Counted from the stretch's first letter, positions 1-20,193 are shown. The stretch is 24,000 nt of DNA from Synechococcus sp. MIT S9452 (GCF_047304245.1 NZ_CP138956.1:871287-895286); one strand, 5' to 3'. Numbers and translations are program-made. Notes: generated by a model not told the origin, from the letters alone.

Positions 1-1
1 G

Positions 2-6000: not shown

Positions 6001-6853
6001 GCTGCAGGCAACCATTAGTGATCTAGAGGAGGGCGGATTCAATTCCATCGGCAACTTCGAACTCAAGGATGCCCTCAGCCGCCAGTTCCCTGGCCTGAAC
6101 AACGCTTCAAACGGAACTAGCAACGAAATCAGCTTGGCCGTCAACGAATTACAGCAAGCAGTTAATCAACTCGAGAACGGAGGCATCAACTCAATCAGCA
6201 GCGCTGATATTCAATCCGCACTGCGCAATCAGTTCCCTGACATAGAAAACTCTCCTGCTGCAGCCAACGACGCCATGTTTGAGCTACAGGCAACCATTAG
6301 TGATCTAGAGGAGGGCGGATTCAATTCCATCGGCAACTTCGAACTCAAGGATGCCCTCAGCCGCCAGTTCCCTGGCCTGAACAACGCTTCAAACGGAGCT
6401 AGCAACGAAATCAGCTTGGCCGTCAACGAATTACAGCAAGCAGTTAATCAACTCGAGAACGGAGGCATCAACTCAATCAGCAGCGCTGATATTCAATCCG
6501 CACTGCGCAATCAGTTCCCTGACATAGAAAACTCTCCTGCTGCAGCCAACGACGCCATGTTTGAGCTGCAGGCAACCATTAGTGATCTAGAGGAGGGCGG
6601 ATTCAATTCCATCGGCAACTTCGAACTCAAGGATGCCCTCAGCAATCAGTTCCCTGGCCTCGATAACGCTTCAAACGGAACTAGCAACGAAATCAGCTTG
6701 GCCGTCAACGAATTACAGCAAGCAGTTAATCAACTCGAGAACGGAGGCATCAACTCAATCAGCAGCGCTGATATTCAATCCGCACTGCGCAATCAGTTCC
6801 CTGACATAGAAAACTCTCCTGCTGCAGCCAACGACGCCATGTTTGAGCTGTAG
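2..6853 (+). CDS. Giant repetitive secreted cell-surface protein (cadherin/VCBS-type, SwmB-like architecture). The 5' end is outside the window, and this segment ends at an in-frame TAG inside a repeat.
   Basis: The frame is open from nt 2 with no upstream stop, so the ATG at 14 is internal. Seven N-D-A/I/T-P domain junctions occur at about 161, 2059, 2624, 2927, 3238, 3541 and 3901, with ~100-aa spacing where consecutive. Motifs typical of VCBS/cadherin-like adhesin domains are present: DGSWSFNP...Y..LA.G...ITV.Y...D..G......F.ITLTGTNDAP, and EDTAYTI...LL.GFSD.D.D. Three tandem-repeat families are all in this frame. The TAG at 6851-6853 replaces the CAG seen in sister units. Confidence 0.85.
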   Translation, partial: QLQQMVFNPAAEASGQASFSFSVTDSGSIDGDGTIISAPEAISETVNINILNFNDAPILPTTAITLADGTEDTAYNFTAEQLLAGVTDPDITYAPDGVTEISRDVDNLQVTGLTATNGTISFEFTLDSTLSSALSGLYPSLESNQADILSAAELLQTAAEELSNGQAISDSSLFDALSAQIPGLQPDAADINQVQVFLQDFDSALTGGQAFPGSPELITALQTTFPVLQTDFSELTEAQVFLQDFDAALTGGQAFPGSPELITALQTTFPVLQTDFSELTEAQVFLQDFDAALTGGQAFPGSPELITALQTAFPVLQTDFSELTEAQVFLQDFDAALTGGQAFPGSPELITALQTAFPVLQTDFSELTEAQTFLQAADQALTNGQPFSGSPELITALQSTFPVLAGELGEADPAEIEAAQLAIQQAAAELTAGGQISNPDLRDALSVALPAVLMDPADLNSAQQQIQQAAAELTAGGQISNADLRNALSVTLPAVLMDPADLNSAQQQIQQAAAELTAGGQISNPDLRDALSVALPAVLMDPADLNSAQQQIQQAAAELTAGGQISNADLRNALSVALPAVLMDPADLNSAQQQIQQAAAELTAGGQISNADLSNALLSAVPGLVADPAAATTAQQLLADGATALLNTSFTFNPDANFNGIANFNYSITDGTATVSNTVALNVAAVNDAPEATFSLAQITTEGNAILSGTLTSFDVDAVGQAPATGSPANSDTAQSADQNSGENSTGDNTNDLPDEGLVDVFSVLSNEDELSTPAFEPETSSNAVPLETASFSLVSASIKDAEGNVVSDPTTGEPVAVEGLSINADGTWSFDPGDGAYNSLAEGEVQTITVNYQVADAAGLTDGNSFVITLTGTNDAPVATFSEAQTATEDAAAFTGQLTSTDVDISDTVSYSLLGADIAGLTINPDGSWSFNPADPAYQDLAAGATQAITVQYSATDNNGGSAANQFVITLTGTNDIPVVDTNATSNLAVGAEDTAYTISKQQLLAGFSDPDRDAAGVMQALDVIDVTASNGSVTTDSDGDFVFTPTANFHGTVTLSYKVSDGTAEIEASNSFLMAEVNDTPVLTSGVAPVLGDGTEDVQYTINASELLGSFSDVDQDSLNILALSSESGTIRSDQQNPGSYTFTPNQDHNGAVTLNYIVSDGRGGNVEGTATFNLEAVNDAPELTGAPEVLFENIAEDSAGLTIKASDLLANYSDVDGNTLNITSFSIKDPLEGEPNQNAIPLDQRIGSIAEIENSGSVTEYKFIPAANFNGFVRFDYTISDGQASLNQSYALEVTSVNDAPTGADKTIRATAGEFITLSPADFGFSDAIDRDVMQSVKLQLKDSNGNSVLTSDNLEITDDFLSQDEQNNGVKTLSFAQLADGKVSLKAGTISSNTRVQFTVVDDGSETIGSNESASPNTLTLYAEPPASDDVTIINQIRVNQVIDILGETLTTQAEKDEYSNTLNLAAALSDEIRVEFLRQYDVGLFSAEGGAGAFKARRFIQSNISTEGLEGDRNQLEQNISGLGLQSAIEKIDVNTNSIVLTLDPSSWTGKHELISSTSGSGEQLTINDDGSWSLEITPPADVEVPGEVADAEISALLNEIYGDDSWSTDSAKAAEAIALFDSTINQISSGGLNAISDPELLNALQLQIPEFQEAVDAAAQFTSAVETLQTAADSLANDDFESIDNAELRDALLNQFPDLASAGADAAAATAELQAAFDQLAGGDINAVSNFELKDALSNQFPGLNNASNGASNEISLAVNELQQAVNQLENGGINSISSADIQSALRNQFPDIENSPAAANDAMFELQATISDLEEGGFNSIGNFELKDALSRQFPGLNNASNGASNEISLAVNELQQAVNQLENGGINSISSADIQSALRNQFPDIENSPAAANDAMFELQATISDLEEGGFNSIGNFELKDALSNQFPGLDNASNGTSNEISLAVNELQQAVNQLENGGINSISSADIQSALRNQFPDIENSPAAANDAMFELQATISDLEEGGFNSIGNFELKDALSRQFPGLNNASNGTSNEISLAVNELQQAVNQLENGGINSISSADIQSALRNQFPDIENSPAAANDAMFELQATISDLEEGGFNSIGNFELKDALSRQFPGLNNASNGASNEISLAVNELQQAVNQLENGGINSISSADIQSALRNQFPDIENSPAAANDAMFELQATISDLEEGGFNSIGNFELKDALSNQFPGLDNASNGTSNEISLAVNELQQAVNQLENGGINSISSADIQSALRNQFPDIENSPAAANDAMFEL
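584..1243 (+). repeat. In-frame tandem repeat family A. Period is 132 bp (44 aa): four near-identical units plus one diverged unit.
   Basis: The string caggtcttcctccaagactttgat recurs at 584, 716, 848 and 980. The unit peptide is QVFLQDFDAALTGGQAFPGSPELITALQTTFPVLQTDFSELTEA. A diverged fifth unit starts at 1112, and a diverged related module precedes the array at 449-583. Confidence 0.95.
1256..1870 (+). repeat. In-frame tandem repeat family B. Period is 129 bp (43 aa), five units, with alternating variants that give a 258-bp higher-order period.
   Basis: The string atccaacaggccgctgctgaactcactgcaggcgg recurs at 1268, 1397, 1526, 1655 and 1784. The unit peptide is IQQAAAELTAGGQISN(P/A)DLR(D/N)ALSV(A/T)LPAVLMDPADLNSAQQQ. 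The NPDLRD and NADLRN variants alternate. Confidence 0.95.
1920..4290 (+). other. Beta-domain array within the giant protein: cadherin-like / VCBS-type ~100-aa domains joined by NDxP junctions, with DxDxD-type acidic motifs.
   Basis: Junction motifs seen are AAVNDAPEATFS, TGTNDAPVATFS, TGTNDIPVVD, AEVNDTPVLTSG, EAVNDAPELTG and TSVNDAPTGAD. Recurrent patterns include FTP.ANF.G...L.Y.VSDG and SDVDG/QD.LNI. An acidic, Ser-rich insertion lies at about 2150-2400. The domain family is assigned from motif knowledge, not from an HMM run. Confidence 0.7.
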
Positions 6854-7222
6854 GCAACCATTAGTGATCTAGAGGAGGGCGGATTCAATTCCATCGGCAA
6901 CTTTGAACTCAAGGATGCCCTCAGCAATCAGTTCCCTGGCCTGAACAACGCTTCAAACGGAACTAGCAACGAAATCAGCTTGGCCGTCAACGAATTACAG
7001 CAAGCAGTTAATCAACTCGAGAACGGAGGCATCAACTCAATCAGCAGCGCTGATATTCAATCCGCACTGCGCAATCAGTTCCCTGACATAGAAAACTCTC
7101 CTGCTGCAGCCAACGACGCCATGTTTGAGCTGCAGGCAACCATTAGTGATCTAGAGGAGGGCGGATTCAATTCCATCGGCAACTTCGAACTCAAGGATGC
7201 CCTCAGCAATCAGTTCCCTGGC
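5207..7222 (+). repeat. In-frame tandem repeat family C. Period is 282 bp (94 aa, two 47-aa modules): seven nearly identical full units plus a partial eighth.
   Basis: Units start at 5207, 5489, 5771, 6053, 6335, 6617, 6899 and 7181, each beginning aactt(t/c)gaactcaaggatgcc. Differences are limited to a few positions: S(N/R)QFPGL(N/D)NASNG(A/T)S, ccctgac versus cccagac, and gagctg/gagcta/gagctgTag. Diverged copies of the same module flank the array at about 4850-5206 and 7223-7500. Confidence 0.97.
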
Positions 7223-10200
7223 CTAAATAACGATCCCTCTCCAGAAGCCACTAGTGCTCGCGACGCACTGCAGCAAACCATTGATCAGCTTGCAAACGGC
7301 GGCATTAACTCCATCAGCAACGCTGAAATTCAAACTGCCCTGCGCAACCAGTTCCCTGGTCTCGACAGCTCCACAACGGCAGACGATGCCCGTTCAGAGC
7401 TGAATGCAGCGATCGATGAACTCAACACTGGCGGTATTAATGCCATCCAAAGCGATGACTTGCGCGATGCATTGCTTGAGCAGTTCCCTCAACTGGGACT
7501 GAGTTCTCTACAAACAGAAATCACCCAAAAGATGGGAGATGCAGCTCAGAAGCTGGGTACTAGCAGAACAGTGAGACAGTGGGATCTGACACCACCGGCC
7601 GACTCGATTGAAGTCAATTACAGCCTGGAGAGCTCCACCGGCCAATCAACAACACAATCGTTTGTTCTCAACATCAACATTGATAGTGATGCTCAAAGCG
7701 TCACAGGAGTCACGGCACAAACAAACCCAGCTAACGCCAACGAACAAGCAGTTGACCTGACTGTGACTTCCGATGGCTCGTTGACGTTCAGCGGGAGCTT
7801 GGCGACTCCTCCAGAGTCTCTGTTCCTGAACTACAGGGACAAGTCAACCAATAACGATGCCAGTGGCGTTCTTGAACTCAGCGGCGGTACTGACATCAAT
7901 GCCTTTATCCGCGAATTCAAGCTCGATGGCAGCACAAACACTGCTTCTCAGGCCACTGAAAGCTTCCAGTCAGCTGTTTTTGATGCCACTGCCAACACGC
8001 TGACACTCACACTCAATACCGGCGTAAGCAGCGATCTAACGGCACCCATTGCTGATGCCAATGGACTGACCTTTGCTGATGTGACGATCGACACCTCCAG
8101 CGAACTGGACACCAGCTCGCTATCCGTTGGCCAGTTGGTTGCCTACGGAGTTGTTGGTGGTGCTGATGCCAACTGGAGCTTCACCAACGTCACCAAAAAT
8201 GAAAGCAATCAACCTGTGCTTCCGACTGGCTTCCCAGATGCGGATGACACTTCAGGCAAAAAGCTCTACGCAGCGAGTGCCACAAGCACCATCAGCCTGA
8301 GAGATCGCTTCATCGTTACCCAAACTGCAGATGAGGCCACCAGGGTTCAGGCCCTGCAGGATCAAATTAATGCGCTGAATACGACCCTCGATGGCATCAA
8401 CAGCGGTGAGCTGATCCCCAAAACAGATCTACTGGCAGCCAACCCCAACCTCATCGATAGCGATGGCAAGGTTGACCTCACCAACTTGGCTGCGGCTATG
8501 CCCAATAGTGGCAATGAGCTGCTCAAGGGCGCAGACGATCCCAACGTCAATGAAGTTGCTGTGCAGATCGGCACAAACGAAGTTGCCATCGATAAAGAGG
8601 AGCTGGGCGAACTGCTTGCAGTCAAGAAGGAGACCTACAAAGAGGCCCTAACCGCTGGTTTCACCAGTGCAGAAGCAGGTACTGCCGCACAGATCAAGAC
8701 GATTGCAGCAGCGAAGGAATTCGGCGTGAATCTCAGCGCCGATGCCAGTGATACCGAGGCCAAAGCGGCGGCTGAATCATTCGACAAGGTCGCTCAGGAA
8801 TTCCTCAAGGCCGGTGTCACGGTGGCTGATGTGCTCGAGTCCGGCGATACAGAGCTCATCGAGCAAACCAAGCAATTGGTGAGTGACCCCAATGCAGCAG
8901 CAGCTGCTGCTGCTGCACGCGAGAAGCTCGATAACTACGTCTCGCCGTTTGGTGGTGTGGCCACCGTCACAGCACTTGACATCATCAAGCTGGCTACTAA
9001 AGCCGGACGCGCCCTCGATGGCGGCACCACCATCACGGATGTGGATGTTCTTGGTACCGATGATCTCTCGGAGACCAACGCAGCCTTCATTGGTGCTTTG
9101 GATGGAACCATCCAAGGAGCAGAAGGAGAAGGACTTAAGTTCAGCGCCGATAGCAAGGCGATGGTCTTTAAGTTCGAACTCAAAGGTGCAACACAAGCCA
9201 GCAAGACCATCAGCTATCTGGCCAGCGGCGAAGACATCTACTTAAAAGATGGCGCTGGCAACTACATCAAGGATGCCGCCGGGAACAATCAACTTATTGA
9301 AGCTGCTCAATCTGAGAATGCAGGTTTCGGGCCAGATGCCGACGGAAATGCAAAGTACGACAAGTACCTCAAGTACGTGTCTCACTACGACCTACTCCAG
9401 TACGGCGCAACTGAAACCGGGGACAAAGACGAGCAGGGCAACATGCTCTTCAGCTGGGATCTCGCTGCCACAGAAGTCGACCCAGCCAATGCAGGTCAGA
9501 TCAGATCCAAGGTGCGTACCGCTGATGGTGCTGCACTCACCACGCTCACTGGCCAGGTGATTGATCGAGCCGGGTGGTACGACTTCACCCAGCAAGGCGG
9601 TAGCGGCGATGGCGCCCGCTACATCGAAAATGACGCCGGACGAATCGTTGGCGTGGAGTTGAACTTCACGGCCAACAAATTCGGCGACAAGGCACCCGAC
9701 GATGACTTCATCACTGACCCGGGTGCCACCGTTGGCACTGAAACCATTGGTTCAGCTCCGACTCCAACGGCAGCTGCAGCGACGCTGGAACAGCGGCTCG
9801 AGGTTCAAACCGAAACCCAAACCCAACTCCCGCTGCAAAACCAGATCGTGCGGGAGACGCCCAACATCGTCAGCAACGCTCAGCCGCAGGATCCACGCCT
9901 AACCGGTACTGGCATCGGCCTCGATGCCTTCTACGGCGATGACATTGGTGTTGATGACTCCGGCGATGGCATCGCTGCCATGAACATCGGCAGCGGCGTG
10001 GGCCCAGGCGAAGCACTGCAATCCACCTCCAGCGGCCAAGGCGATGGCGAAATGAGCCTCAGCCAAGCTCTCAACACCTTCCTTGGCGAAGGCGAAGGCC
10101 AAGGCACCTCCGACACCCAAGGCCAAGCCAAGGGTCAAGGCGCAGAAGGCCAAGGCGCTGGCACCGGCGGGGATGCCGCCCTTGGGGAAGATCAATCCCC

Positions 10201-10984
10201 CGACACTCAGCGCAAGCGCGGCCTGCTGCTGCAGCCGATGATGAAGGCAGCGGAACAGGCCCAAGAGGCAGCCTCCAGCTCCAAGCTGCTGAAAAACCTG
10301 TCAGAAGGAACCCTGCTGGGCACCAACCTGCTCGATGCCCTGGCACTCGGCGCTGGTGTTCTTTACGCCCTCTATGCGCCCAAGGCGGTGGAGACCAGCC
10401 GCAAGGGTCTGCGCGGCTTGGTGGATCGCTTCCGCAACCAGGTCACCGGTGGCGGCGTCAAGATCCCTGAGAAGCAAGTGCTCTCGGTGTTTGCGATGCG
10501 CATGGCCAACGGCAGCGAACGCCTGGTGGCCGCCAAGGTGGGCATGGGCACCATGGAAGTGGTGGCCCAGCAGGATCTGCCGGCCGATGCTGGTGTCAAC
10601 AAGCCCGGCAGCCAAACCCAGGTCGACTACGCCGTCAAGCAGCTGGTCAACAAGCTGGGCGAGCGCACCAGTGATGTGTTGCTGATTGGTCCGCAACTCA
10701 GCAACCAGCGCTCACTGCTGGAGAACATCGCCGGTGAAACCCGCAACCTAGAAACCAGCAGCTTGGTGGAACGCATCAAGCAATGCAGCAGTGAGGAGAT
10801 CAGCCAACTGCGCGCTTGGCTCGATAAGCCCTCCAGCACACCTCCAGAAAGCAGCCCCGTCTATCAGCAGATGATGGGCCGCATGGAGAGCTACGGCGGT
10901 GTCTTCAGCCAAGAGCAAGCCTCGATGGCGTCGCTGATTGAGCTCAGCATCGCCCTGGGCTGGAGCGGAAGTGAGGCCGGCTAA
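6980..10984 (+). CDS. Continuation of the same giant surface protein, in the same frame as 2-6853. It covers the C-terminal unique region, a G/Q/E-rich low-complexity linker, one hydrophobic helix and a ~210-aa C-terminal domain.
   Basis: 14 and 6980 are both 2 mod 3. Translation directly after the TAG, from 6854, continues the repeat (ATISDLEEGGFNSIGNFELKDALSNQFPGL...). 6980 is only the first start-like codon (TTG) picked by the ORF caller and lies inside a repeat unit. The ORF ends at TAA 10982-10984. Confidence 0.8.
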   Translation: MAVNELQQAVNQLENGGINSISSADIQSALRNQFPDIENSPAAANDAMFELQATISDLEEGGFNSIGNFELKDALSNQFPGLNNDPSPEATSARDALQQTIDQLANGGINSISNAEIQTALRNQFPGLDSSTTADDARSELNAAIDELNTGGINAIQSDDLRDALLEQFPQLGLSSLQTEITQKMGDAAQKLGTSRTVRQWDLTPPADSIEVNYSLESSTGQSTTQSFVLNINIDSDAQSVTGVTAQTNPANANEQAVDLTVTSDGSLTFSGSLATPPESLFLNYRDKSTNNDASGVLELSGGTDINAFIREFKLDGSTNTASQATESFQSAVFDATANTLTLTLNTGVSSDLTAPIADANGLTFADVTIDTSSELDTSSLSVGQLVAYGVVGGADANWSFTNVTKNESNQPVLPTGFPDADDTSGKKLYAASATSTISLRDRFIVTQTADEATRVQALQDQINALNTTLDGINSGELIPKTDLLAANPNLIDSDGKVDLTNLAAAMPNSGNELLKGADDPNVNEVAVQIGTNEVAIDKEELGELLAVKKETYKEALTAGFTSAEAGTAAQIKTIAAAKEFGVNLSADASDTEAKAAAESFDKVAQEFLKAGVTVADVLESGDTELIEQTKQLVSDPNAAAAAAAAREKLDNYVSPFGGVATVTALDIIKLATKAGRALDGGTTITDVDVLGTDDLSETNAAFIGALDGTIQGAEGEGLKFSADSKAMVFKFELKGATQASKTISYLASGEDIYLKDGAGNYIKDAAGNNQLIEAAQSENAGFGPDADGNAKYDKYLKYVSHYDLLQYGATETGDKDEQGNMLFSWDLAATEVDPANAGQIRSKVRTADGAALTTLTGQVIDRAGWYDFTQQGGSGDGARYIENDAGRIVGVELNFTANKFGDKAPDDDFITDPGATVGTETIGSAPTPTAAAATLEQRLEVQTETQTQLPLQNQIVRETPNIVSNAQPQDPRLTGTGIGLDAFYGDDIGVDDSGDGIAAMNIGSGVGPGEALQSTSSGQGDGEMSLSQALNTFLGEGEGQGTSDTQGQAKGQGAEGQGAGTGGDAALGEDQSPDTQRKRGLLLQPMMKAAEQAQEAASSSKLLKNLSEGTLLGTNLLDALALGAGVLYALYAPKAVETSRKGLRGLVDRFRNQVTGGGVKIPEKQVLSVFAMRMANGSERLVAAKVGMGTMEVVAQQDLPADAGVNKPGSQTQVDYAVKQLVNKLGERTSDVLLIGPQLSNQRSLLENIAGETRNLETSSLVERIKQCSSEEISQLRAWLDKPSSTPPESSPVYQQMMGRMESYGGVFSQEQASMASLIELSIALGWSGSEAG

Positions 10985-11051: not shown

Positions 11052-11543
11052 TTAAGCGGCCTGCTCGTCAGGTTTGATCGGGCAGTGCTCAACAATCAAA
11101 TCCATGATCAGCGTGGTGCGATTGGGCTGCGCCTGAATCGCAAAAGCTTCCTTCTCGATATCCCACTTACGACTGGAGTAATTGCGATAGAGGGTGTTGA
11201 ACACAGCCCGATCGACTGCATAACCAACCGGAGGCCGATAGCCAAGCGGCTTCATCTTGCCGGTCTTGCAGGCTTGAACGGCATGCACCGCTTCATGCAC
11301 AAACGTTTGCGGCATGATCCCCATCGCTTCAGTGATCGGATGCACCCAAATGGTTTTTTTCTTGGAATTCGCCATCCCATAGATGCCCTTGCGGGGCGGG
11401 GCCTGCAGCAAGACTGTCCAACCGCGTTGCTCTAAAGCATCAGCGATCGGCTGCAAATTCGCAGGAAACGCCAAGGCCGGCTTGAATGGCGCCAGCAGCG
11501 CCAAGGCCAAAGACGAACGGATCGCAAAGCTGATTCGGCTCAT
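11052..11543 (-). CDS. Small exported protein with an HExxH motif (putative zinc-metallopeptidase-like, ~163 aa). It is the last gene of the stator-like block.
   Basis: The preferred start is the ATG at 11543, which forms an ATGA overlap with the upstream gene's TGA (plus strand 11540-11543 reads tcat). The N-terminus MSRISFAIRSSLALALLAPFKPALA-FP looks like a signal peptide. It has a single FVHEAVHAVQ (HExxH) motif, with Glu residues ~40 aa downstream (EKEAF). The longer ORF reaching 11612 would overlap the upstream gene by 73 nt. Confidence 0.6.
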   Translation of the reverse strand: MSRISFAIRSSLALALLAPFKPALAFPANLQPIADALEQRGWTVLLQAPPRKGIYGMANSKKKTIWVHPITEAMGIMPQTFVHEAVHAVQACKTGKMKPLGYRPPVGYAVDRAVFNTLYRNYSSRKWDIEKEAFAIQAQPNRTTLIMDLIVEHCPIKPDEQAA

Positions 11544-12214
11544 TGGACCATCAAGGCGCGGCCAGAATTGCCCCAAAAATAGATCGGATCTCCGGCATAC
11601 CAAGGCTCCCAACCCAAAGGAACCTCATGCTGAATCGCTTTGGCTTTGATCTTGCGATATTGATCAAATCCTGTTTTCTCCAAAACAATGAACAGGGCTT
11701 CTTTGTTTTCAGACAGCCCCTTCATGAAGGCATCCAGCCGCTCAGGGTTGTTCTTGATCTCCGCCGCGGAAATCGTGGGCTGACCCGCCGCGCGAATCAA
11801 GCCATTGGCATGGGAGATCTCCATGCTCACTTGGCCGATGTTTTCATTGCGGGCCCAGCCATCAAGCTGAGCGTTACAGAGCTTTTGCTCAGCCGGCAGC
11901 AACTGCTGACAGCGGCGCACTTCTTCTCCGCGCTCACGGTCGAGCTCTGTCATGCGAGTGACGGCAGGCTGCAGGTCCCATAAACCATTGGCCGAGACCT
12001 GCACCAGATGAAACGAGCGGGTGCTCTTTTTGCTCATCGGCGCTTGGATATTCAAGGCGCTATTAGCCGCAATCACCCCGGTGAGCGAACCCACCAACGC
12101 CATCACACCCACAACGTTGGAGAGGATGTCGAGCAGGCCATCGGTGGACCCCTCAGGCACCCAACCTTTGCGCTTGCGGCGGTTCTTCAACAGCAGATCA
12201 CTGAGGCGCGGCAT
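11540..12214 (-). CDS. ExbD/TolR-like single-pass membrane protein (224 aa) with a conserved Asp at the cytoplasmic edge of the TM helix and an enlarged periplasmic domain.
   Basis: It has a basic N-terminus (KNRRKRK) followed by GLLDILSNVVGVMALVGSLTGVIA. This aligns by eye with the ExbD segment PFIDVMLVLLIIFMV, placing Asp29 at the ExbD Asp25 position. Next come LNIQAP (resembling i.v.LP) and a C-terminal motif, ALFIVLEKTGFDQYRKIKAKAIQHEVPLGWEP, shared with the neighbouring paralogue. The start codon overlaps the upstream stop (TAATG, 12212-12216). Confidence 0.6.
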   Translation of the reverse strand: MPRLSDLLLKNRRKRKGWVPEGSTDGLLDILSNVVGVMALVGSLTGVIAANSALNIQAPMSKKSTRSFHLVQVSANGLWDLQPAVTRMTELDRERGEEVRRCQQLLPAEQKLCNAQLDGWARNENIGQVSMEISHANGLIRAAGQPTISAAEIKNNPERLDAFMKGLSENKEALFIVLEKTGFDQYRKIKAKAIQHEVPLGWEPWYAGDPIYFWGNSGRALMVQ

Positions 12215-12678
12215 TAGTTCATGCCTCCGTTGGCATCAGGAACAATGACCTTGAGATCAGGTTCCAGCGGCTCATAGCCCACCATGATCTTGCGTAATTC
12301 CGCCTTGGAGCGAATTGCTTCAAAATCGACATAGCCCTCCGGGCGCACACCTATCACCAAATATTGCTCGGAATTACGGGACGCAATGCGATCCAAAAAT
12401 GCTTCCACCGCATCATCACCCGTTCGCACGGTGCGGCGTTGCTGGGGGCCAATCAGCTCCAGTTCGCCTTCGCCATTGACCAAGATGTAATTGGCCTCAC
12501 GGCCTTGGCCCGCGCCTTCGGCTGGCAACAACTGAATCGCTTGCACGCCAGGGCGAATCTGCAGCGCCGAGATCACCATCATCAAGGCCTGCACACCAAT
12601 GGTGGCGGCCATGATGTTCATGAACGAGAACAGGCTGACGCCTGGTGCTGTTGATGAGCGGCGGTGTCGACGTGCCAT
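12214..12678 (-). CDS. ExbD/TolR-like single-pass membrane protein (154 aa). It is a paralogue of the 224-aa protein but has Asn in place of the TM Asp.
   Basis: It has a basic N-terminus (MARRHRRSS), then the TM segment VSLFSFMNIMAATIGVQALMMVISAL with Asn21 at the Asp position. VQAIQLLPAEG follows, then a periplasmic domain ending YLVIGVRPEGYVDFEAIRSKAELRKIMVGYEP. Size and layout match ExbD/TolR. It sits 18 bp downstream of the MotA/ExbB-like gene. Confidence 0.6.
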   Translation of the reverse strand: MARRHRRSSTAPGVSLFSFMNIMAATIGVQALMMVISALQIRPGVQAIQLLPAEGAGQGREANYILVNGEGELELIGPQQRRTVRTGDDAVEAFLDRIASRNSEQYLVIGVRPEGYVDFEAIRSKAELRKIMVGYEPLEPDLKVIVPDANGGMN

Positions 12679-12696
12679 GGATGCGCTGGCCCTCGC

Positions 12697-14034
12697 TTAC
12701 CAGAACCAACGACGGCGGCGCGGTCGTTCAATTTGCTGCAGCTGACCATTAAGTTGTTCGATCGCTTGGCGCAACTCAACCAAGGCCTGGAGCTGATCCA
12801 TCTGCTCCACTTCGGTAAAGGTGCGACCTGAAGCGCGCTCCAAACGAGTGAGCACAGGATCGAGATCTTTCATGGTTTGGCCAAGATCACCGGCCATCGA
12901 ATCCATGCTGCCGCGGATCACATCGGCTTGATCTTGCAAGCTCAAACGTGCTTCGGCGATTCCTTCCACCGAATCACGCACCAAATTGGTGAGGGGCGCC
13001 AATTTCTCCACTGTGGCCTCGGTGAGGCGTTCGGCATAGGCCTGAGCCGGCTCCACCAACACCGATGGATCGGGCAGATGCTTTTCAAATGCGTCATTGA
13101 TCATGATCCCCAGCTCTTCACTGGAGAGCCCGGTGAGTGATTCCAAAGCACTTTCACTGGCGGGCTTGCCGGCTTTGCCGCCACCGCCGCCAAAGCCGCT
13201 GGGCTCCATCGCACCGATTTCACCTTCACCCAATGGGCTCAGGGCCATCACCGCTTCACGGATGAAGCCGTCGATCTGATTGAGCAGACGTTCCTCGCGG
13301 CGCTCCACCGAATTAAGCGGGAAGGCCATGATCACCGAGATCACCAGGGCCAGATAGGTGGTGTCGAATGCCGTACCCAGACCACTGGTCACCTGGGTCA
13401 GGCCATTTTTGAGGCCCTCAACGTTGTCGGCATTGCCGAGCACCTCATCAAAGGAGCCCACAGCACTGGACATCCCGAGCACAGTGCCGATGAAGCCCAA
13501 CAGGGGAATCGCCCACAGCAACACCTTCGGCAGGCTGTAGCTCTGCTGGACAGCCAACTCAAACAGATCGGCATCGTTATCCGCCGAACGCTCCAGCTGG
13601 AAGGCAGAACCTGTTTCGGTCCAAACATTGAGCAAGCGCAACACGCGCTTGCCCACCAGCGATCTGGATTGCTGGCTTTGGTTGGTGATCGCATCAAGAT
13701 CCCCCGAGCGGATCAACGGCGTGAGCGCTAGATCAAATTGCTTGGTTTTACGGCTCTGCTGCTGCAGCAACTGCCATTTGCTGAAGATAAAAACGGCCAG
13801 CATGCCGCCCATCACCAAACAGACCACCTGGGTGGGGCCGCGCTGGTGCAAAAACTCGTGAAACGGAAACCCAGGCGGACTGGTCAGCAACCACAGCACC
13901 AAACCAATCACGCCACCGGGGACAGCCCAACGAATCAGCTTGGGATTGAGGTCATCCCCCTCACCAAGACTGACCGGTGGAGCCGAAGCACTCCCCATAC
14001 CCGGCAGGTTCATCGCTGATGGGCTGGCAATCAT
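12697..14034 (-). CDS. MotA/TolQ/ExbB-family ion-channel (stator-type) protein, 445 aa, with four TM helices and a ~200-aa C-terminal coiled-coil extension.
   Basis: TM helices are at about aa 45-62, 78-96, 171-195 and 222-245. The family-typical TM3/TM4 signature is present: AIPLLGFIGTVLGMSSAVGSF ... GLTQVTSGLGTAFDTTYLALVISVIMAFPLN. A long loop lies between TM2 and TM3, as in MotA. The C-terminal tail has a Gly-rich linker (GFGGGGGKAGKP) and heptad-like helices, and ends ERPRRRRWFW. Alternative starts at Met8 or Met13 are possible. Confidence 0.75.
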   Translation of the reverse strand: MIASPSAMNLPGMGSASAPPVSLGEGDDLNPKLIRWAVPGGVIGLVLWLLTSPPGFPFHEFLHQRGPTQVVCLVMGGMLAVFIFSKWQLLQQQSRKTKQFDLALTPLIRSGDLDAITNQSQQSRSLVGKRVLRLLNVWTETGSAFQLERSADNDADLFELAVQQSYSLPKVLLWAIPLLGFIGTVLGMSSAVGSFDEVLGNADNVEGLKNGLTQVTSGLGTAFDTTYLALVISVIMAFPLNSVERREERLLNQIDGFIREAVMALSPLGEGEIGAMEPSGFGGGGGKAGKPASESALESLTGLSSEELGIMINDAFEKHLPDPSVLVEPAQAYAERLTEATVEKLAPLTNLVRDSVEGIAEARLSLQDQADVIRGSMDSMAGDLGQTMKDLDPVLTRLERASGRTFTEVEQMDQLQALVELRQAIEQLNGQLQQIERPRRRRWFW

Positions 14035-14074
14035 GACGCGTAGATGTGCTGGTTAATCAAGTCGTTGCTATCGA

Positions 14075-14359
14075 TCAAGCCGACTTCGCGGCATCCCATT
14101 CCTTCCACTCCACTTCCACTTCACCAACGCCTTGGCTGGTCGGCGGCGGAATGCGGTTGAGCATGTCGTTGGGTAAGCCCAAACGCTCGAATACCACCTT
14201 GCGTTGATCGGTAGGCATCGAGGCAAAGGAGCGCACCACCTCGCGCACCTTGAACTCGCTGTAAACCAAATTCATCAGCTCTTCCTGGTCAGCAGGATCC
14301 AACTGCTGAAACCAAGCGAGGAATTTGGGCAGGCGTTGACTGAGATCAGAACTGGTCAT
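14075..14359 (-). CDS. Small soluble hypothetical protein (94 aa) lying between the T1SS genes and the stator-like genes.
   Basis: It is an intact ORF in the same orientation as its neighbours, 40 bp upstream of the MotA-like gene. There is no TM segment or signal peptide and no motif I recognise. Composition is helical and acidic, with a PPP-containing tail (RIPPPTSQGVGEVEVEWKEW). Confidence 0.5.
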   Translation of the reverse strand: MTSSDLSQRLPKFLAWFQQLDPADQEELMNLVYSEFKVREVVRSFASMPTDQRKVVFERLGLPNDMLNRIPPPTSQGVGEVEVEWKEWDAAKSA

Positions 14360-14447
14360 TGGAGAGGCGAAAGCAATTCGGAATCAACAAGAAGAAGAGG
14401 ATCAGCTCATCCCGAAGGCGGCGGCAACGACAGGCGGCGGATCACGA

Positions 14448-15629
14448 TCATTTGCTCGAGCGAATACTGCGCAGGGAATCCAACGCCTTCTGGATGGCAT
14501 CGGTGAGCAGCGAGATCACGCGCTTATCACGCAGCACCAAGTTGGCTTGAACGCTTTGACCTGGGCTGACTTTGTATTCCCTGCCATCACGCTCCAGGAA
14601 CTGCTGATCCAGTCCGATATAGGCGGGGAACCTGGCTTGAGGTGAGGTTTGATCCGGCGGAAGGGGCAAGGTGCCCACCGACTTCAACTCACCCTCGATG
14701 GCGCCAAATTGGGTGTAGGGGAAGGCATCCACCCGAATCTGGGCAGGCATGCCTGGCTCGAGGAAACCAACATCGCGGTTGGTGATGAACACCTTGGCCT
14801 CCAGCGCCCCGCCAGGAACCACCTTCACTAGGGTTTCTCCCGCTGAGGCGGCATAGCCCGGGCTCGAGGGCACCATGCCGTAAACAACGCCATTGACTGG
14901 CGACACCAGCACTTCCTTGCTGCGGGTGTCATTGACTTCCACCAGCTGCCGCTCCAGATCAGCCAGCTCGCCAAGGGACTCCTGCTTCATCTTGAGCAGC
15001 TGAGCCTGCACTTCCTGCAAGTTGGCTTTGGCCTGGGCTATTTGCGATTGCAGTTGTTCAATGCTGTTTTTTTGCTTCAGCACCTGCATCCGCTGAATCC
15101 CGCCTTGAGCAGCCAAGGGAACGATGGCGGCATAGATCTCACGCTCAGTAGCCAAGGCCCTTGAAAGGCCATCCATCCGCTCCTGCAAGCTTTGCTCCCG
15201 CGCGCGGAATGATCGGGTTTCTTCGGTAAAGCGATTTTCCTCCAGCTCGTATTGCCGCTCCAATGTTTCTTTGCGCTTTTCCGACACTTCGGTGTCCATG
15301 CGAATCAGCGCTTGGCCGGCCACGACCTCTTGGCCCTCAGTCACCAAAATCTCTTTGACCATGCCGGCAAACGGCGCTTTCAAAGGGCGTTCAGCGCCCA
15401 ACGGCTGGAGTTCACCAACAGCCAAGACCACCTCATCAATTTTGGCAAAACAGGCAAAAACAAAGGCAAAACTGGCGCTGCCAATGATCGTCCAGGCCAG
15501 GGCGCGGCTCCAGACCGGAGCAGGCCGCAAACGCACTTCCTGGGGATTCAGGGGGCGAACAGCCAAGCTTGACGGCTTCGCCAGGGCGGAGGATTTTTTG
15601 TCAGCTTTTTGGGGGAGGTTTTTATTCAT
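14448..15629 (-). CDS. HlyD-family membrane fusion protein (type I secretion periplasmic adaptor), 393 aa.
   Basis: It has an N-terminal cytoplasmic stretch and a single TM segment (WSRALAWTIIGSASFAFVFACFA). A lipoyl-like half-motif follows (LKAPFAGMVKEILVTEGQEVVAGQALIRMD), then a long coiled-coil (EKRKETLERQYELEE...QSQIAQAKANLQEVQAQLLKMK) and the second half-motif LVSPVNGVVYG. The beta-barrel motif VDAFPYTQFGAIEGELKSV is also present. The start lies 9 bp after the ABC gene's stop. Confidence 0.9.
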   Translation of the reverse strand: MNKNLPQKADKKSSALAKPSSLAVRPLNPQEVRLRPAPVWSRALAWTIIGSASFAFVFACFAKIDEVVLAVGELQPLGAERPLKAPFAGMVKEILVTEGQEVVAGQALIRMDTEVSEKRKETLERQYELEENRFTEETRSFRAREQSLQERMDGLSRALATEREIYAAIVPLAAQGGIQRMQVLKQKNSIEQLQSQIAQAKANLQEVQAQLLKMKQESLGELADLERQLVEVNDTRSKEVLVSPVNGVVYGMVPSSPGYAASAGETLVKVVPGGALEAKVFITNRDVGFLEPGMPAQIRVDAFPYTQFGAIEGELKSVGTLPLPPDQTSPQARFPAYIGLDQQFLERDGREYKVSPGQSVQANLVLRDKRVISLLTDAIQKALDSLRSIRSSK

Positions 15630-15638
15630 TGTTTTGGC

Positions 15639-18600
15639 TTAAACCTCCTGCTGGTGATAGAGGGTGGCGTAGCGACCATCCAGCTCCATGAGGTCTTCAT
15701 GGGTGCCCTGTTCAACCAAAGCCCCTTGATCCATCACCAAGATGTGATCAGCAGCCTTCAAGGAAGCAAGCCGGTGGGTAATAAAGAACACCGTGCTTCC
15801 TTTGTAGAGCTGCATGAGATTAGCAGTTAATCGCCGTTCAGTATCAACATCCAAGGCACTGGTGGCTTCATCCAACACCAACAATCTTGGTTTGCGAATA
15901 ATCATCCGCGCAATCGCCAAACGTTGGCGTTGGCCGCCGCTCAAGCCAGCACCACGTTCACCCACCGAGCTGCTGTAACCCGCTGGCATGGCCTCGATAA
16001 ATTCATGAGCGCAGGCCACCTGACCGGCCAAAACAATTTCTTCAAAGCCAGCATCTGGCCTGGTTAAAGCGATGTTGGACATCACGGTTCCGTCAAAAAG
16101 CAAGCTGTCCTGGGGCACAACGCCGATCTGAGCGCGCAACGAATAGAGATCCACCTTGCTGATGTCGTTGCCATCAATCCGAAGACTTCCCTCTGCTGGT
16201 TCATACAAACGGGTGAGCAGTTTTAACATCGTGCTTTTGCCAGAGCCACTACTTCCCACCACGCCAACAAAGGATCCAGCCGGAATCTTGAAGCCAACAT
16301 TCATCAGCTGCATCTTGCCAGTTTCACCAAAGCGGAAGCTGACGCCCGAATACTCCACTTCACCAACAATGGGGGGGATCGGAGGTTTTTGATCACCCGT
16401 AAGTTCCAGCTCCTGGGGATGATCAACAATGTCAGCCAAGCGCTCCAATGACAGAGCGGTTTCTTGGAAGTTCTGCCACAGGTTGGCCATGCGCAGCAGC
16501 GGGCTCGTCACGTAGCCAGCCAAGATGCGGAAGGCGATGAGTTGGCCCAAGGTCATCTCGCCTTTGAGCACCAAAGACGCACCCACCCAGAGCACCAATA
16601 GACCAGACAGTTGCTCTAAAAACTGACTCGCTGATGCTGCAGCTGTGCTGGTAACGACATTCTTAAAGCCCGATTGAATTTGGCCGCCGTAGAGCTGCTG
16701 CCAACGCCAGCGGCTATGCACCTCCATGCTTTGGCCTTTGATGGTTTCCATCCCGCCAAGGGTTTCCACCAAGTGGCTTTGCACTTTGGAATTGGCCTCA
16801 GCCTGCTGCCTGAGCTGCTTACGGATCACAGGAGCAGAGAAGAACGTGACGCCCACAAACAGAGGCACCACCGCCAAAGCCCAGAAGGTGAGCTGCACGG
16901 AATACAGCAGCATCACAGCGATATAAATCACCGCAAATACCGCATCCAAAATCACCGTTAAGGCGGTGCCTGTGAGGAAACGGCGAATTTTCTCGAGTTC
17001 ATTCAGCCGGCTGCTGACTTCACCCACCGGTCGATCGGCGAAATACCCCAGCGGCAACCGCAGCAGGTGATCGATGATCGTGGAACCCAAGGAAATATCA
17101 ATGCGGTTGGTGGTGTCAGAGAACAGATAGGTGCGCAACGACGACAGCACCGCTTGCGCTAACCCCATGCCCACCAGCAAGGTGCCGAGCACATTGAGGG
17201 TGCTGACATTGCCCTGGCTGATCACCGCATCGATGATTTGCTGAATCAGCAAGGGATTCAGCAAACCAAAAAGCTGCACAAAAAAGCTGGCCAGCAGCAC
17301 TTGAATCAGCACCGACTTGTACTGCTTCAACGCCGGCACGAACCAGCTGATGCCAAAGCGCTTGGTGGGCGTTTGTTGGCTGCGCTCAATGCAAAGCACC
17401 GTCAACAGCCCCTCCTCATCGCGCTCCTCCAAGGAGGCAATCGGGCGCAGGCCTTGCTCAGCGATGGGATCACCCACCAACACCTGCCCGCCTTGATCGC
17501 TATCCCACAGGATCATTGGGCCATAGGGGCCCATGGTGATCGCCGGAAATTGCAGGCGGGCCAACTGCTGATCATCAACATTCAGCTGGGAAGCCCGCAG
17601 GCCCATCACATCAGCAATAGCCGCCATCTGCAGCAAGCTGATGCCGGAACCGTCTTCATTGCGGTTGAGCTGATCCTCCAAGATCCGCTGCAACACGTCT
17701 TTGCGGAAGGGCAAATCGAACTGGCGGGCCAACATCCGCAACACAGCCATGGGTATCCCCACGGGCCCTTCACCTTTGAGGTGGGGGAAGCTGCCGTCAT
17801 CCGCTAGACGGCCATACCAATCCTCCAGAGCATCTTGCTGACGCTCCACCACCACGATGGCGGAGGAGCTTTCCTGCCAATCAGGCTCCAGCAGCTCAGC
17901 TTCGGTGCGAACCGGCTCGATTTCGCCACTATCGGGGGAGAGCACCATCACCGATGGGCTTTCCATCGGCGGTGTGGCAGCCGATTTAGCCAACAACCTT
18001 GCCGGCACTTGGCCGCGAATGTTGAGCTTGGCTGGTCCCAGCAGCTCTTCTCCGGGCGCAGCACCAGCAATGTTGCTGCTGCTCACCAGCCAAGGCCCCC
18101 AATCGGAGCCGAACTGGTGCTCGCCGGGAGGCAGCAACAGCACATGCTGCTGATCAGAGGCTTCCTCGAGTTGATTGCTAGCCCAATCCCGCAGGCTGCG
18201 CCGATCAGGGGTGCGCGGCGCGGGGCTATCGGCCGCCACCGCATACAACTCCTCCAACGATGGCTGGGCCAAAGCCAGTTGCAGACTTGGATATTCCCGC
18301 ACCACCTCCAAAAAGGTTTGCTGCGGGATCAGCCACAACTGGCTGGGCTGGGAGGCCGCTAAGGCTTGGCCGGCCACACCCCGCAGCAAACCCACATCAC
18401 CGGCACTATCACCAGATCCAAGCCGGCGCAGCGTGAAAGGCACATCCTGCTCATCAAGAGCCAACAAACGCATCTGGCCTTGGGCGACCAAGGCCACACC
18501 AGGCGGCAGGCAGTCGTAGTCGTAAAGCTTTTGCCCAGGCCGGAGCTGAAGCGCCTGCAGGGATTCGGCCAACTTGGCCTGGGCAGCTTGCGGCAAGCGC

Positions 18601-18650
18601 GAGTACGGAGCCCACGAGGCAATGAGCTTGAGAGCCAGCGTGAGCTGCAT
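15639..18650 (-). CDS. T1SS-type ABC exporter (1003 aa): N-terminal cNMP-binding-like domain, Cys-less C39-like domain, six-TM ABC membrane domain and a nucleotide-binding domain.
   Basis: NBD motifs are Walker A GSSGSGKST, Q-loop VVPQDSLLF, signature LSGGQRQR, Walker B LLVLDEATSALD and H-loop FFITHRL. The cNMP-like fold spans aa ~20-135 (LRPGQKLY...VALVAQGQMRLL...LRRLGSGDSAGDVGLLRG...LWLIPQQTF). The C39-like region spans aa ~285-425 (GIPMAVLRMLARQFDLP...SLLQMAAIADVMGL...FPAI...VLVGDP), with Pro at the catalytic Cys position and no H-[FY]-V-V. Confidence 0.92.
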   Translation of the reverse strand: MQLTLALKLIASWAPYSRLPQAAQAKLAESLQALQLRPGQKLYDYDCLPPGVALVAQGQMRLLALDEQDVPFTLRRLGSGDSAGDVGLLRGVAGQALAASQPSQLWLIPQQTFLEVVREYPSLQLALAQPSLEELYAVAADSPAPRTPDRRSLRDWASNQLEEASDQQHVLLLPPGEHQFGSDWGPWLVSSSNIAGAAPGEELLGPAKLNIRGQVPARLLAKSAATPPMESPSVMVLSPDSGEIEPVRTEAELLEPDWQESSSAIVVVERQQDALEDWYGRLADDGSFPHLKGEGPVGIPMAVLRMLARQFDLPFRKDVLQRILEDQLNRNEDGSGISLLQMAAIADVMGLRASQLNVDDQQLARLQFPAITMGPYGPMILWDSDQGGQVLVGDPIAEQGLRPIASLEERDEEGLLTVLCIERSQQTPTKRFGISWFVPALKQYKSVLIQVLLASFFVQLFGLLNPLLIQQIIDAVISQGNVSTLNVLGTLLVGMGLAQAVLSSLRTYLFSDTTNRIDISLGSTIIDHLLRLPLGYFADRPVGEVSSRLNELEKIRRFLTGTALTVILDAVFAVIYIAVMLLYSVQLTFWALAVVPLFVGVTFFSAPVIRKQLRQQAEANSKVQSHLVETLGGMETIKGQSMEVHSRWRWQQLYGGQIQSGFKNVVTSTAAASASQFLEQLSGLLVLWVGASLVLKGEMTLGQLIAFRILAGYVTSPLLRMANLWQNFQETALSLERLADIVDHPQELELTGDQKPPIPPIVGEVEYSGVSFRFGETGKMQLMNVGFKIPAGSFVGVVGSSGSGKSTMLKLLTRLYEPAEGSLRIDGNDISKVDLYSLRAQIGVVPQDSLLFDGTVMSNIALTRPDAGFEEIVLAGQVACAHEFIEAMPAGYSSSVGERGAGLSGGQRQRLAIARMIIRKPRLLVLDEATSALDVDTERRLTANLMQLYKGSTVFFITHRLASLKAADHILVMDQGALVEQGTHEDLMELDGRYATLYHQQEV

Positions 18651-18719: not shown

Positions 18720-19463
18720 CTATGCAGCTTTTGCATCGGTTGCTGGACGCATTTCCCGCTGCAGCCACTCTTCACCAAGCTCCAACACCAACTGCTGCTT
18801 CAGGCCCTGGTTAAACACAACCGGCAGCAACTGATCGAGGCGCACGATGCACCAACCCCCCTCCGCTTCTTTTGGGGGCCACAGCTTGCCCGGGGTGCTC
18901 ACACGCAGCAGCTCGCGCAGCACCTCAGGCACCTCACCGAGAGGAACAGGTCCGTGCTGACCAGAGGGCACAGCCGGCTTGGCCGCATTCATCTCTGCTG
19001 CAATCTGCTCAAGCTTGCGCTCCCCTTCGCTGAGCTGCAAAAACAGCTCATGGGCCAAGCCCTCATCAGCAATCCACAGCAGTGAATAGCTGACGCGATC
19101 CAGCTGGCTCTTGCGCTTAAGGAACAAGGTGGAAGCTTGCCCTTTAAATCGCTGCTCACAAAGCAGCTGCCAGCGCAGTTGACGTTCTGCCCGGCAGATC
19201 AGATCGGCTTCGCTGAGCCCCTCAGCCTGCAGCCACTGCTGCACGGCCTGCTGAGTTTTCAGCTGCCGTGCAGCCAGGAACAACGGCACCGCCTGCTCTT
19301 TTCGCTCATCGCTCAGCTCTGGCTGGCCTTGCAGCAACAGATCCCGCTGCTCTTCGCGTTGCACCAGCGATCCATAGCCCCACGAGCTCAGACGCTCGCC
19401 CAGCGAAGCCGATGTGGCCGAGGGCAGACCTCGCGGCGCAGAACCACCCTCGACAGCACTCAA
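18720..19463 (-). CDS. Hypothetical protein with a possible degenerate parvulin (PpiC)-like PPIase/chaperone domain, 247 aa.
   Basis: It is an intact same-strand ORF 69 bp upstream of the ABC exporter. The C-terminal half, ELFLQLSEGERKLEQIAAEMNAAKPAVPSGQHGPVPLGEVPEVLRELLRVSTPGKLWPPKEAEGGWCIVRLDQ, follows the parvulin pattern F..LA...S......GG.LG....G.L.P.....L..L..G....P.....G..I.RL only loosely. The assignment is tentative. Confidence 0.4.
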   Translation of the reverse strand: MSAVEGGSAPRGLPSATSASLGERLSSWGYGSLVQREEQRDLLLQGQPELSDERKEQAVPLFLAARQLKTQQAVQQWLQAEGLSEADLICRAERQLRWQLLCEQRFKGQASTLFLKRKSQLDRVSYSLLWIADEGLAHELFLQLSEGERKLEQIAAEMNAAKPAVPSGQHGPVPLGEVPEVLRELLRVSTPGKLWPPKEAEGGWCIVRLDQLLPVVFNQGLKQQLVLELGEEWLQREMRPATDAKAA

Positions 19464-19497: not shown

Positions 19498-20193
19498 TTA
19501 AGCAACTTGCCGCTCTTCTAATGGCGTTGTGTCCCAGCCAATGGGGTGCATTGGAATCACCTGCCCGCGCTTAGGCGCAAGCTCAGCAATCTCCTCGCAA
19601 GCCTTGGTGTAGGCATGCCAACCGATCATGCGACGAGGATCAGATTTACCTGCCGCAGACACCGCTTGATCCACGGTGACGCCAGCATTTTCTGCTTTTT
19701 CAAATGCAGCCAGCAGGGGGATTTGAGCGCGCAGAACCGAAATACCTGCAGCTTCCAGTGCTTGGCGAATCTCGCGGGCCGCCTTGGCTTTACGCGAATC
19801 AACCTTCACCAGCAAGGCAGCAAAGGGAACATTGAACTGCTTGAGATGCTCGGCCATCTCCAGGGTCAATTCCAATGAACGGGTCTGAGCTGCGGTGGGA
19901 AGAATGATCACATCAGCGCCATCCACCAAGTTTTTGATTTCTTCTTGGCTGCTACTGGCTTGACCATCAGTAACCACCACCTCGGCATACCGGGTGGCCT
20001 TGGCCGCCGCTTCAATCGGAGCCACTTCAAAGTTCAATAATCCGCGGGCGCCATAGGCACTGGCTGAGCGATTGCGATCGGCATCAACCATGACAACTGA
20101 TTGATATTGATTGGACCAAATCGCCGCCAAATGCACGCTTGTGCAGGTTTTGGCAACACCACCTTTCTGACCGAAAACTGTTACGAACATCAC
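19498..20193 (-). CDS. ParA/MinD-family P-loop ATPase (orphan ParA-like, ~230 aa).
   Basis: It carries the deviant Walker A motif GQKGGVAKT, Walker A' VVMVDADRN and Walker B VVVTDG, and its size is typical of small ParA/VirC1-like ATPases. The ORF opens with GTG at 20193, immediately followed by ATG at 20190, which is the likelier start. No ParB-like gene is adjacent. Confidence 0.8.
   Translation of the reverse strand: MMFVTVFGQKGGVAKTCTSVHLAAIWSNQYQSVVMVDADRNRSASAYGARGLLNFEVAPIEAAAKATRYAEVVVTDGQASSSQEEIKNLVDGADVIILPTAAQTRSLELTLEMAEHLKQFNVPFAALLVKVDSRKAKAAREIRQALEAAGISVLRAQIPLLAAFEKAENAGVTVDQAVSAAGKSDPRRMIGWHAYTKACEEIAELAPKRGQVIPMHPIGWDTTPLEERQVA

Follow-up and report, generated by a model that had tools for sequence, protein, structure and literature searches.

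What does a set of stator-like proteins do in a cyanobacterium when its genes stand in one string with a type I secretion system (T1SS), and when this string converges on the gene of a giant surface protein? The question is raised by a stretch of DNA of Synechococcus sp. MIT S9452 comprising 24,000 nucleotides (the window; coordinates are counted from its first letter), in which a gene encoding a MotA/TolQ/ExbB-like protein of 445 amino acids (aa) is followed by two genes encoding small single-pass proteins of 154 aa and 224 aa. The original prediction for this locus had described the one-plus-two set as a candidate motor of the cell envelope and had linked it to the giant protein SwmB and to non-flagellar swimming. 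We have analyzed the three proteins, the genes surrounding them and their relatives in other genomes. In our estimate, the chances are about even that these proteins represent a new subfamily of 5:2-type motors which was recruited as an accessory of a T1SS/giant-adhesin system.

The MotA/TolQ/ExbB-like subunit

The 445-aa protein is identified by its sequence as a member of the MotA_ExbB family. Residues 143-254 matched the Pfam model MotA_ExbB (PF01618) with 33.9 bits at a cut-off of 22.9 and an E-value of 3e-8, and homologs from Crocosphaera and Blastopirellula also scored above this cut-off; the search with this model had been proposed as a check together with the original prediction and was passed. 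Hydropathy analysis revealed four hydrophobic segments (residues 32-51, 66-90, 167-194, and 218-244), which bears out the predicted protein with four transmembrane segments. The third and the fourth segment contain the motifs PLLGFIGTV..GM and GLGTAFD.TY, which are invariant in 20 homologs. The version annotated at NCBI starts seven codons downstream, comprises 438 aa and is named "MotA/TolQ/ExbB proton channel family protein".

The four segments are followed by a C-terminal tail of about 200 aa, which is presumed to be cytoplasmic. This tail is largely helical, and much of it is invariant across 20 homologs; conserved motifs encoded within 12697-13300 of the window are FEKHLPDPSVLVEPA and VRDSVEG.AEARLSLQ.QA. 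Homology of the tail reaches copies in Gimesia and other Planctomycetota. With its last 70 aa or so, sub-threshold matches of the coiled-coil type to designed coiled coils were obtained, and the tails of ZorA proteins were matched weakly. At the level of subfamilies, the 445-aa protein scored 17 bits with the NCBIfam model tolQ (cut-off 221) and 20.6 bits with ZorA_2 (cut-off 100), and the ZorA model of PADLOC gave 21 bits with stretches of the tail included. The protein is not close to any characterized subfamily of MotA_ExbB.

The two small subunits

The families of the 154-aa and the 224-aa protein are paralogous, as revealed by hhalign with a probability of 99.2% and an E-value of 6e-20. 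Both proteins have an arginine-rich N-terminus followed by one hydrophobic segment, and the 224-aa protein, labeled "hypothetical" at NCBI, differs from the 154-aa protein by an additional helical segment of about 70 aa, in which a pair of cysteines located beyond the transmembrane helix is conserved. In the model that AlphaFold provides for the 154-aa protein (mean pLDDT 66), the transmembrane helix is followed by a domain with the order strand-strand-strand-helix-strand-helix-strand. When this model was compared with 350,542 PDB chains using Foldseek, the best match was E. coli TolR (5BY4) with an E-value of 2.9e-3 and a target TM-score of 0.59; ExbD (8P9R) gave a TM-score of 0.68. A PADLOC search of the small proteins for ExbD or TolR was negative. 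When profiles were compared with ExbD and TolR of E. coli, the match was collinear and weak (E-value 5e-4); it serves as a lead only.

Because sequence models fail (see below) and the AlphaFold model matches TolR in Foldseek, the term "ExbD/TolR-like" is upheld for fold and topology, with the moderate confidence of the model, and not for family membership. Hence, of the predicted pair of paralogous single-pass proteins with an ExbD/TolR layout, the paralogy, the single transmembrane segment of each protein and the fold of the 154-aa protein stood, and the assignment to the ExbD/TolR sequence family did not.

ExbD, TolR, and MotB possess an essential Asp in the transmembrane helix at the position that matches Asn21 of the 154-aa protein. 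The 224-aa family has Asp at this axle position in 32 of 32 sequences; the residue of the window is Asp29, which the original prediction had singled out and which proved to be the invariant Asp of the transmembrane helix. Additionally, Asp25 of the 224-aa protein is nearly invariant. In the 154-aa family, the same position is occupied by Ser in 45, by Asn in four, and by Asp in one of 50 sequences. If the two proteins form an axle, this axle is asymmetric, and it would be unusual because just one of its two subunits retains the proton-binding Asp.

Linkage to a type I secretion system

The three genes belong to a string of eight genes with, in the direction of transcription, genes for a parvulin-like protein, an ABC (ATP-binding cassette) exporter of the HlyB type, a HlyD-type adaptor and a 94-aa protein before them, and a gene for a protein with an HExxH motif after them (Table 1). 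Open reading frame (ORF) coordinates confirmed the positions given in the original prediction and the location of all genes on the minus strand. The junctions described there were likewise found in the sequence: the genes of the 445-aa and the 154-aa protein are separated by 18 nucleotides, a TAATG overlap at 12214 joins the genes of the 154-aa and the 224-aa protein, and an ATGA overlap joins the latter with the HExxH gene, which starts at 11543. Via this ATGA overlap, the HExxH gene is apparently translationally coupled to the gene of the 224-aa protein. The remaining gaps of the string amount to 40, 88, 9, and 69 base pairs (bp). No terminator-like site was found in the intergenic gaps within the string; one is located at 19489-19467, just upstream of the parvulin-like gene.

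The same string of eight genes was found in a locus nearly identical to the window (L001), in Vulcanococcus (L002), in the freshwater Synechococcus UW140 (L003), in two loci of the estuarine strain NB0720_010, which belongs to clade CB5 of subcluster 5.2 (L082 and L083), and on three metagenome contigs (L084-L086). Across these T1SS-linked loci, identity of the MotA-like protein goes down to 56-67%. A giant cadherin-like gene faces the string in every picocyanobacterial locus of the close subfamily that was read, except for the Vulcanococcus locus, which ends before any giant gene. Thus, the arrangement that had been predicted, namely a one-plus-two stator-like set in one string with a T1SS and converging on a giant gene, was confirmed and is conserved in relatives. 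Judged from gene content and order, linkage of the module to the T1SS and to the giant gene is conserved and not accidental. Conservation of this translationally coupled gene order is the strongest indication of a functional link of the module to the system of T1SS and giant protein. Fusion of a T1SS with the module was seen only in picocyanobacteria, and the literature searched contained no paper on a T1SS encoded together with such a motor module.

Distribution of the three-gene module

A genome scan yielded at least 81 related loci, few marine Synechococcus among them, which were compared ORF by ORF. Of the 81 loci listed, 78 have all three genes on one strand and with an unchanged order. 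These loci originate from picocyanobacteria, Planctomycetota, Verrucomicrobiota, Myxococcota, and metagenome-assembled genomes (MAGs) of spirochetes; other cyanobacterial loci belong to Crocosphaera, Cyanothece, Xenococcaceae, Spirulina, Waterburya, and Paraprochloron, and Microcystaceae are also among the relatives that carry the module. In a search of 1.84 billion representative sequences, the family profile detected 172 clusters (50% identity) when the limit was set to E ≤ 1e-30; with E ≤ 1e-3, their number rose to 3150.

Most of the module loci listed have neither a T1SS nor a giant gene adjoining. Clustering of all ORFs within about 7-8 kb of stand-alone modules revealed no conserved partner beyond the three genes, and the sampled modules adjoin genes with housekeeping or unrelated functions, such as those for a histidine kinase, ChlH/CobN, MutS, pyruvate kinase, PntAB, and P450; a vWA protein was not encoded among these neighbors. 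TonB, TonB-dependent receptors, and iron genes were found neither in the window, for which the lack of TonB and of its receptors had already been reported in the original prediction, nor beside the sampled modules with flanks of up to 10 kb. That prediction had named as evidence against itself a block which is equally conserved in non-motile strains without a giant-protein/T1SS neighbor and is usually linked to genes for TonB and its receptors; the module does occur without such a neighbor in most loci listed, and linkage to TonB was not seen. Since the module is present across phyla mostly without a T1SS, its basic job would not require one, and the three genes constitute an old and self-standing unit.

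Two variants of the module were observed. In the PVC group its proteins are larger: the A subunit of Blastopirellula marina (L080, 9515-11209) comprises 564 aa with a zinc-ribbon-like stretch at its N-terminus, and small subunits of this group have about 270 and 370 aa with long coiled-coil-like inserts after the transmembrane helix. A MAG of the Prochlorococcaceae (L004) contains a distant picocyanobacterial copy with 36% identity which stands alone, without a T1SS and next to a ComEC-like gene; several of the clusters formed at 50% identity resemble it. This copy harbors the only subunit of the 154-aa type with Asp at the axle position (11182-11658).

Proposed role and alternative explanations

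In the model of a 5:2-type motor serving the T1SS, the 445-aa MotA/TolQ/ExbB-like protein would form a ring around an axle consisting of a heterodimer of the 154-aa and the 224-aa TolR-like proteins, with a protonatable Asp (Asp29) on the 224-aa subunit alone. Ion flow would rotate or switch this axle, and the envelope would thereby be subjected to mechanical work by the two periplasmic TolR-like domains. The module stands alone in the majority of lineages; in picocyanobacteria it is part of an operon together with the genes of the HlyB/HlyD-type T1SS, the parvulin-like, the 94-aa, and the HExxH protein. The giant cadherin-like protein would be the most likely export substrate of the T1SS, and the motor, as an accessory depending on the proton-motive force, might help to export, tether, tension, or release this surface protein. 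It is taken as an accessory of the T1SS and the giant protein because the operon faces a giant protein that is likely exported by this T1SS. The 5:2 stoichiometry is assumed by analogy with other members of the family, and from the features described above we infer the heterodimeric axle, the ion coupling and any link, be it physical or functional, that the module has with the T1SS or the giant protein.

Several results weigh against such a motor or its coupling to secretion. Models for ExbD (PF02472), TolR, and MotB from Pfam and NCBIfam gave no match at E ≤ 1 with the 154-aa protein, the 224-aa protein or their homologs; the ExbD model had also been proposed as a check of the original prediction, and neither small protein matched it. 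Profiles of the small-subunit families matched no ExbD or TolR chain among the PDB sequences, and the profile of the 445-aa family gave no match at E ≤ 1 with solved chains of ExbB, TolQ, MotA, ZorA, and GldL. Confidence in the model of the 154-aa protein is moderate (pLDDT 66), and its match to TolR has an E-value of only 2.9e-3; the AlphaFold model of the 224-aa protein contains a confident periplasmic domain, yet Foldseek found no significant match to it in the PDB. Furthermore, the module of most lineages lacks a T1SS, and the operon link could therefore mean shared regulation or a shared location in the envelope and not direct coupling. A last point of this kind comes from Synechocystis sp. 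PCC 6803, which is compared here by outline only: the operon sll0477-0479 (given as "ExbB-like, HP, HP", where HP denotes a hypothetical protein) responds to iron stress with a 6.7-fold induction and contains a Fur box (PMC4195498, PMC8634477).

The Synechocystis operon suggests a Ton-like energizer of the ExbB-ExbD1-ExbD2 type for the uptake of nutrients such as iron, which possibly acts without a classical TonB and whose place in the T1SS operon would be incidental or regulatory. Microcystaceae, Crocosphaera, and Cyanothece, which are related to Synechocystis, are among the carriers of the module; a Synechocystis protein was not named in the representative search and the cluster look-ups. 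The lack of TonB, receptor, and iron genes in the window and near the sampled modules argues against a role in uptake, as does the translational coupling of the picocyanobacterial genes within a T1SS operon, and we regard this explanation as rather unlikely. A general Tol-like motor for envelope maintenance (tethering or constriction of the outer membrane), working in lineages without classical Tol-Pal and adjoining the T1SS merely as another envelope gene set, would agree with the wide occurrence of the module in diderm phyla, with its fixed gene order, with neighbors such as ChlH, MutS, pyruvate kinase, and PntAB, and with TolR as the best structural match. It would leave unexplained the strict overlapping operon of eight genes, which is maintained across picocyanobacteria down to 56% identity; no partner resembling TolA, TolB, or Pal was seen, and the module seems to be absent from most cultured marine Synechococcus, MIT S9452 being the only cultured strain of subcluster 5.1 named among the best 120 homologs. 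Such a motor seems quite unlikely to us.

The module could also be the force generator of non-flagellar swimming, which would move or vibrate a SwmB-like giant protein, as had been suggested originally. The energy converter of swimming is listed as unknown (PMC7004002), GldLM/SprB and AglRQS provide precedents, and the conserved linkage of a stator-like module with a T1SS and a giant surface protein speaks in its favor. Reports of swimming are, however, confined to clade III, and the islands in which swmA and swmB lie are described as specific to this clade (PMC7522525). The operon occurs in the estuarine strain NB0720_010 of subcluster 5.2, in Vulcanococcus, and in freshwater picocyanobacteria, and no named clade III strain is among the best 120 homologs, which share 54% identity or more. 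A connection with SwmB and swimming was thus not borne out; we assign it a very low probability, and clade III genomes should be checked before this locus is regarded as the missing motor of swimming. Finally, the weak ZorA models are the best subfamily-level matches of the 445-aa protein, and its helical C-terminal tail of about 200 aa would suit an anti-phage system similar to Zorya, in which a ZorA-like protein senses perturbation of the envelope via a long tail. The scores are far below cut-offs of 100-500 bits, a peptidoglycan-binding partner of the ZorB type and genes for ZorC, ZorD, or ZorE were not seen, and PADLOC gave no further match with four neighboring proteins. The stable gene order next to housekeeping or T1SS genes is also not that of a defense island, and we regard this explanation as very improbable.

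That a T1SS possesses its own ion-driven motor, in which the MotA-like ring and the asymmetric TolR-like heterodimer exploit the ion gradient to pull, tension, move, or release a giant cadherin-like adhesin, is unlikely as judged at present, if a serious possibility; if true, this would be a T1SS analog of GldLM with the T9SS and SprB, and non-flagellated picocyanobacteria would have an energized cell surface and perhaps an unnoticed form of motility, grazing defense, or control of adhesion. 5:2 motors are known for flagella, Ton, Tol, gliding, type IX secretion systems (T9SSs), and Zorya, and the subfamily would add a widespread and unstudied branch. Coupling to the T1SS would change the view of how export and display of giant adhesins are energized and would provide a mechanistic handle on the giant proteins of picocyanobacteria.

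Comparison with known systems

In its working, the module appears most similar to TolQR, ExbBD, or AglRQS, and only its large subunit makes it part of the MotA_ExbB superfamily. It shares with TolQ-TolR and ExbB-ExbD an A subunit of the MotA_ExbB family with Pro, Gly, and Thr motifs in the third and fourth transmembrane segment, small subunits in which a basic cytoplasmic N-terminus precedes a single transmembrane helix and a predicted periplasmic domain with three strands followed by helix-strand-helix-strand, an invariant transmembrane Asp on one small subunit, and the position of the A gene directly before the genes of the small subunits. ExbB and TolQ have three hydrophobic segments, whereas the A subunit of the module has four and additionally the tail of about 200 aa. 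Further differences are the missing ExbD/TolR sequence match, the lack of a visible partner of the TonB, TolA, Pal, or receptor type, and an axle that presumably is a heterodimer with Asp on one subunit only.

AglR-AglQ-AglS of Myxococcus xanthus also combines one TolQ-like with two different TolR-like proteins and acts on surface adhesion machinery; unlike it, the module has no Glt-type partners and is linked to a T1SS or to nothing, the two being comparable at the level of the superfamily. A one-plus-two module with vWA transducers in the PVC group is similar in outline and in its occurrence in Planctomycetota and Verrucomicrobia. No vWA gene was found downstream of the module in the PVC loci sampled, where the genes located encode, among others, a beta-propeller protein, a kinase, a helicase, and an enzyme of the radical SAM type; these loci therefore probably represent a different subfamily. 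GldLM/PorLM with the T9SS and SprB is alike in concept, being an ion-driven 5:2 motor whose genes accompany those of a secretion system and which acts for a giant repetitive adhesin. However, the secretion system here is a T1SS, and GldL and GldM have no recognizable sequence relation to the module.

The genes sll0477-sll0478-sll0479 of Synechocystis, named exbB, exbD3, and exbD4 in the literature, constitute a three-gene cyanobacterial operon of the same outline, and sll0478 and sll0479 are listed as HP and hence likewise are not recognized as ExbD. This operon is regulated by iron and Fur and has no linkage to a T1SS. The giant repetitive adhesin LapA is encoded beside its own T1SS LapBCE and the periplasmic protease LapG, an arrangement that resembles the locus described here. 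Unlike this locus, the Lap system has no motor module, and the HExxH protein is unrelated to the cysteine protease LapG.

Partner genes of the operon

The features of the window are compiled in Table 1.

Table 1. Genes of the eight-gene string and the giant gene facing it
Feature	Coordinates	Strand	Basis
Parvulin (PpiC)-related protein, first gene of the string	18720..19463	-	weak Rotamase matches
HlyB-type ABC exporter, 1003 aa	15639..18650	-	NCBIfam type_I_sec_HlyB; Pfam ABC_membrane, ABC_tran
HlyD-type periplasmic adaptor, 393 aa	14448..15629	-	Pfam HlyD_3; NCBIfam type_I_hlyD
94-aa protein, no family match	14075..14359	-	Pfam and NCBIfam searches
MotA/TolQ/ExbB-like subunit, 445 aa	12697..14034	-	Pfam MotA_ExbB
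Single-pass protein with TolR/ExbD-like predicted fold, 154 aa	12214..12678	-	AlphaFold and Foldseek
Paralog of the 154-aa protein, 224 aa	11540..12214	-	hhalign
HExxH protein, putative small exported metallopeptidase, 163 aa	11052..11543	-	sequence motif
Giant repetitive gene, 3' part, converging on the string	1..10984	+	Pfam Cadherin_5 and Big_9

The best-scoring models of the two T1SS proteins remained below their cut-offs, with 682 bits versus 725 for the ABC exporter (type_I_sec_HlyB) and 175 bits versus 208 for the adaptor (type_I_hlyD), which also matched HlyD_3 with an E-value of 4.6e-16. A TolC-like gene was not found in the window. The N-terminal 400 aa or so of the ABC exporter gave Pfam matches just below the cut-offs, namely to cNMP_binding (26.5 versus 27.5 bits) and, following it, to Peptidase_C39 (20.1 versus 22 bits), which hints at secretion under the control of cyclic nucleotides. 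The cNMP_binding match recurs in all orthologs of the exporter.

The HExxH protein has an N-terminus resembling a signal peptide and the motif HEAVH, and it matched DUF6782 of Pfam weakly (E-value 0.09); its gene occupies the same position in every T1SS-linked locus that reaches that far. A hidden Markov model built from orthologs of the 94-aa protein matched in L001-L003 only, among the 81 loci listed, and a gene for a protein of 93-98 aa is present at the corresponding position in L082-L085. The 94-aa protein was seen solely in the T1SS-linked picocyanobacterial cluster; the HExxH protein was not searched by profile. In L004 and L045, small ORFs that precede the module were considered as homologs of the 94-aa protein and rejected, as they are not homologous. 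The longest ORF of the parvulin-like protein comprises 247 aa, and the gene caller assigned 214 aa to it in L001. It scored 42 bits with the NCBIfam model TIGR04500, far below the cut-off of 180, and its gene is present in L001, L003, and L082-L086.

The giant cadherin-like protein

The giant gene extends beyond the left edge of the window; it matched Cadherin_5 with an E-value of 9e-79 and contains Big_9 repeats, and its DNA is repeated in tandem units of 129-282 bp. Owing to a TAG in frame at 6851-6853, it is divided into two ORFs, one reaching to 6853 and the other starting from 6980. The TAG lies in a 282-bp tandem repeat (5205-7232; 7.2 copies with 97% identity), the sister repeat of which has CAG encoding Gln at this site. 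It could be a true nonsense mutation or an error of assembly or sequencing within the repeats; a check in an environmental relative was uninformative, the contig being riddled with frameshifts.

The last 330 aa or so of the giant protein (9990-10984) are conserved in L003 and in L082-L085, and the repeats differ between strains. This conserved block consists of the motif RGL.L.P, a hydrophobic stretch NLLDALALGAG.LY.LY.PK, and a domain of about 230 aa ending with W(L/I)(D/N)KPS...ELS.A..WS, and it has no Pfam match. A shared C-terminus combined with differing repeats fits a cognate signal, and the region may thus serve for secretion by the T1SS or for anchoring. The giant protein of NB0720_010 comprises 10,749 aa, and it was reported to be most similar to a protein of WH8101 and not to SwmB (PMC9387257).

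Neighboring genes

Upstream of the string, the window contains a gene for a ParA-like ATPase of 231 aa (19498-20193), for which a ParB partner was not obvious, and a gene for an aminopeptidase N of 870 aa (20278-22890). The ParA-like and the aminopeptidase N genes do not precede the string in NB0720_010; both are found at this place in L001.

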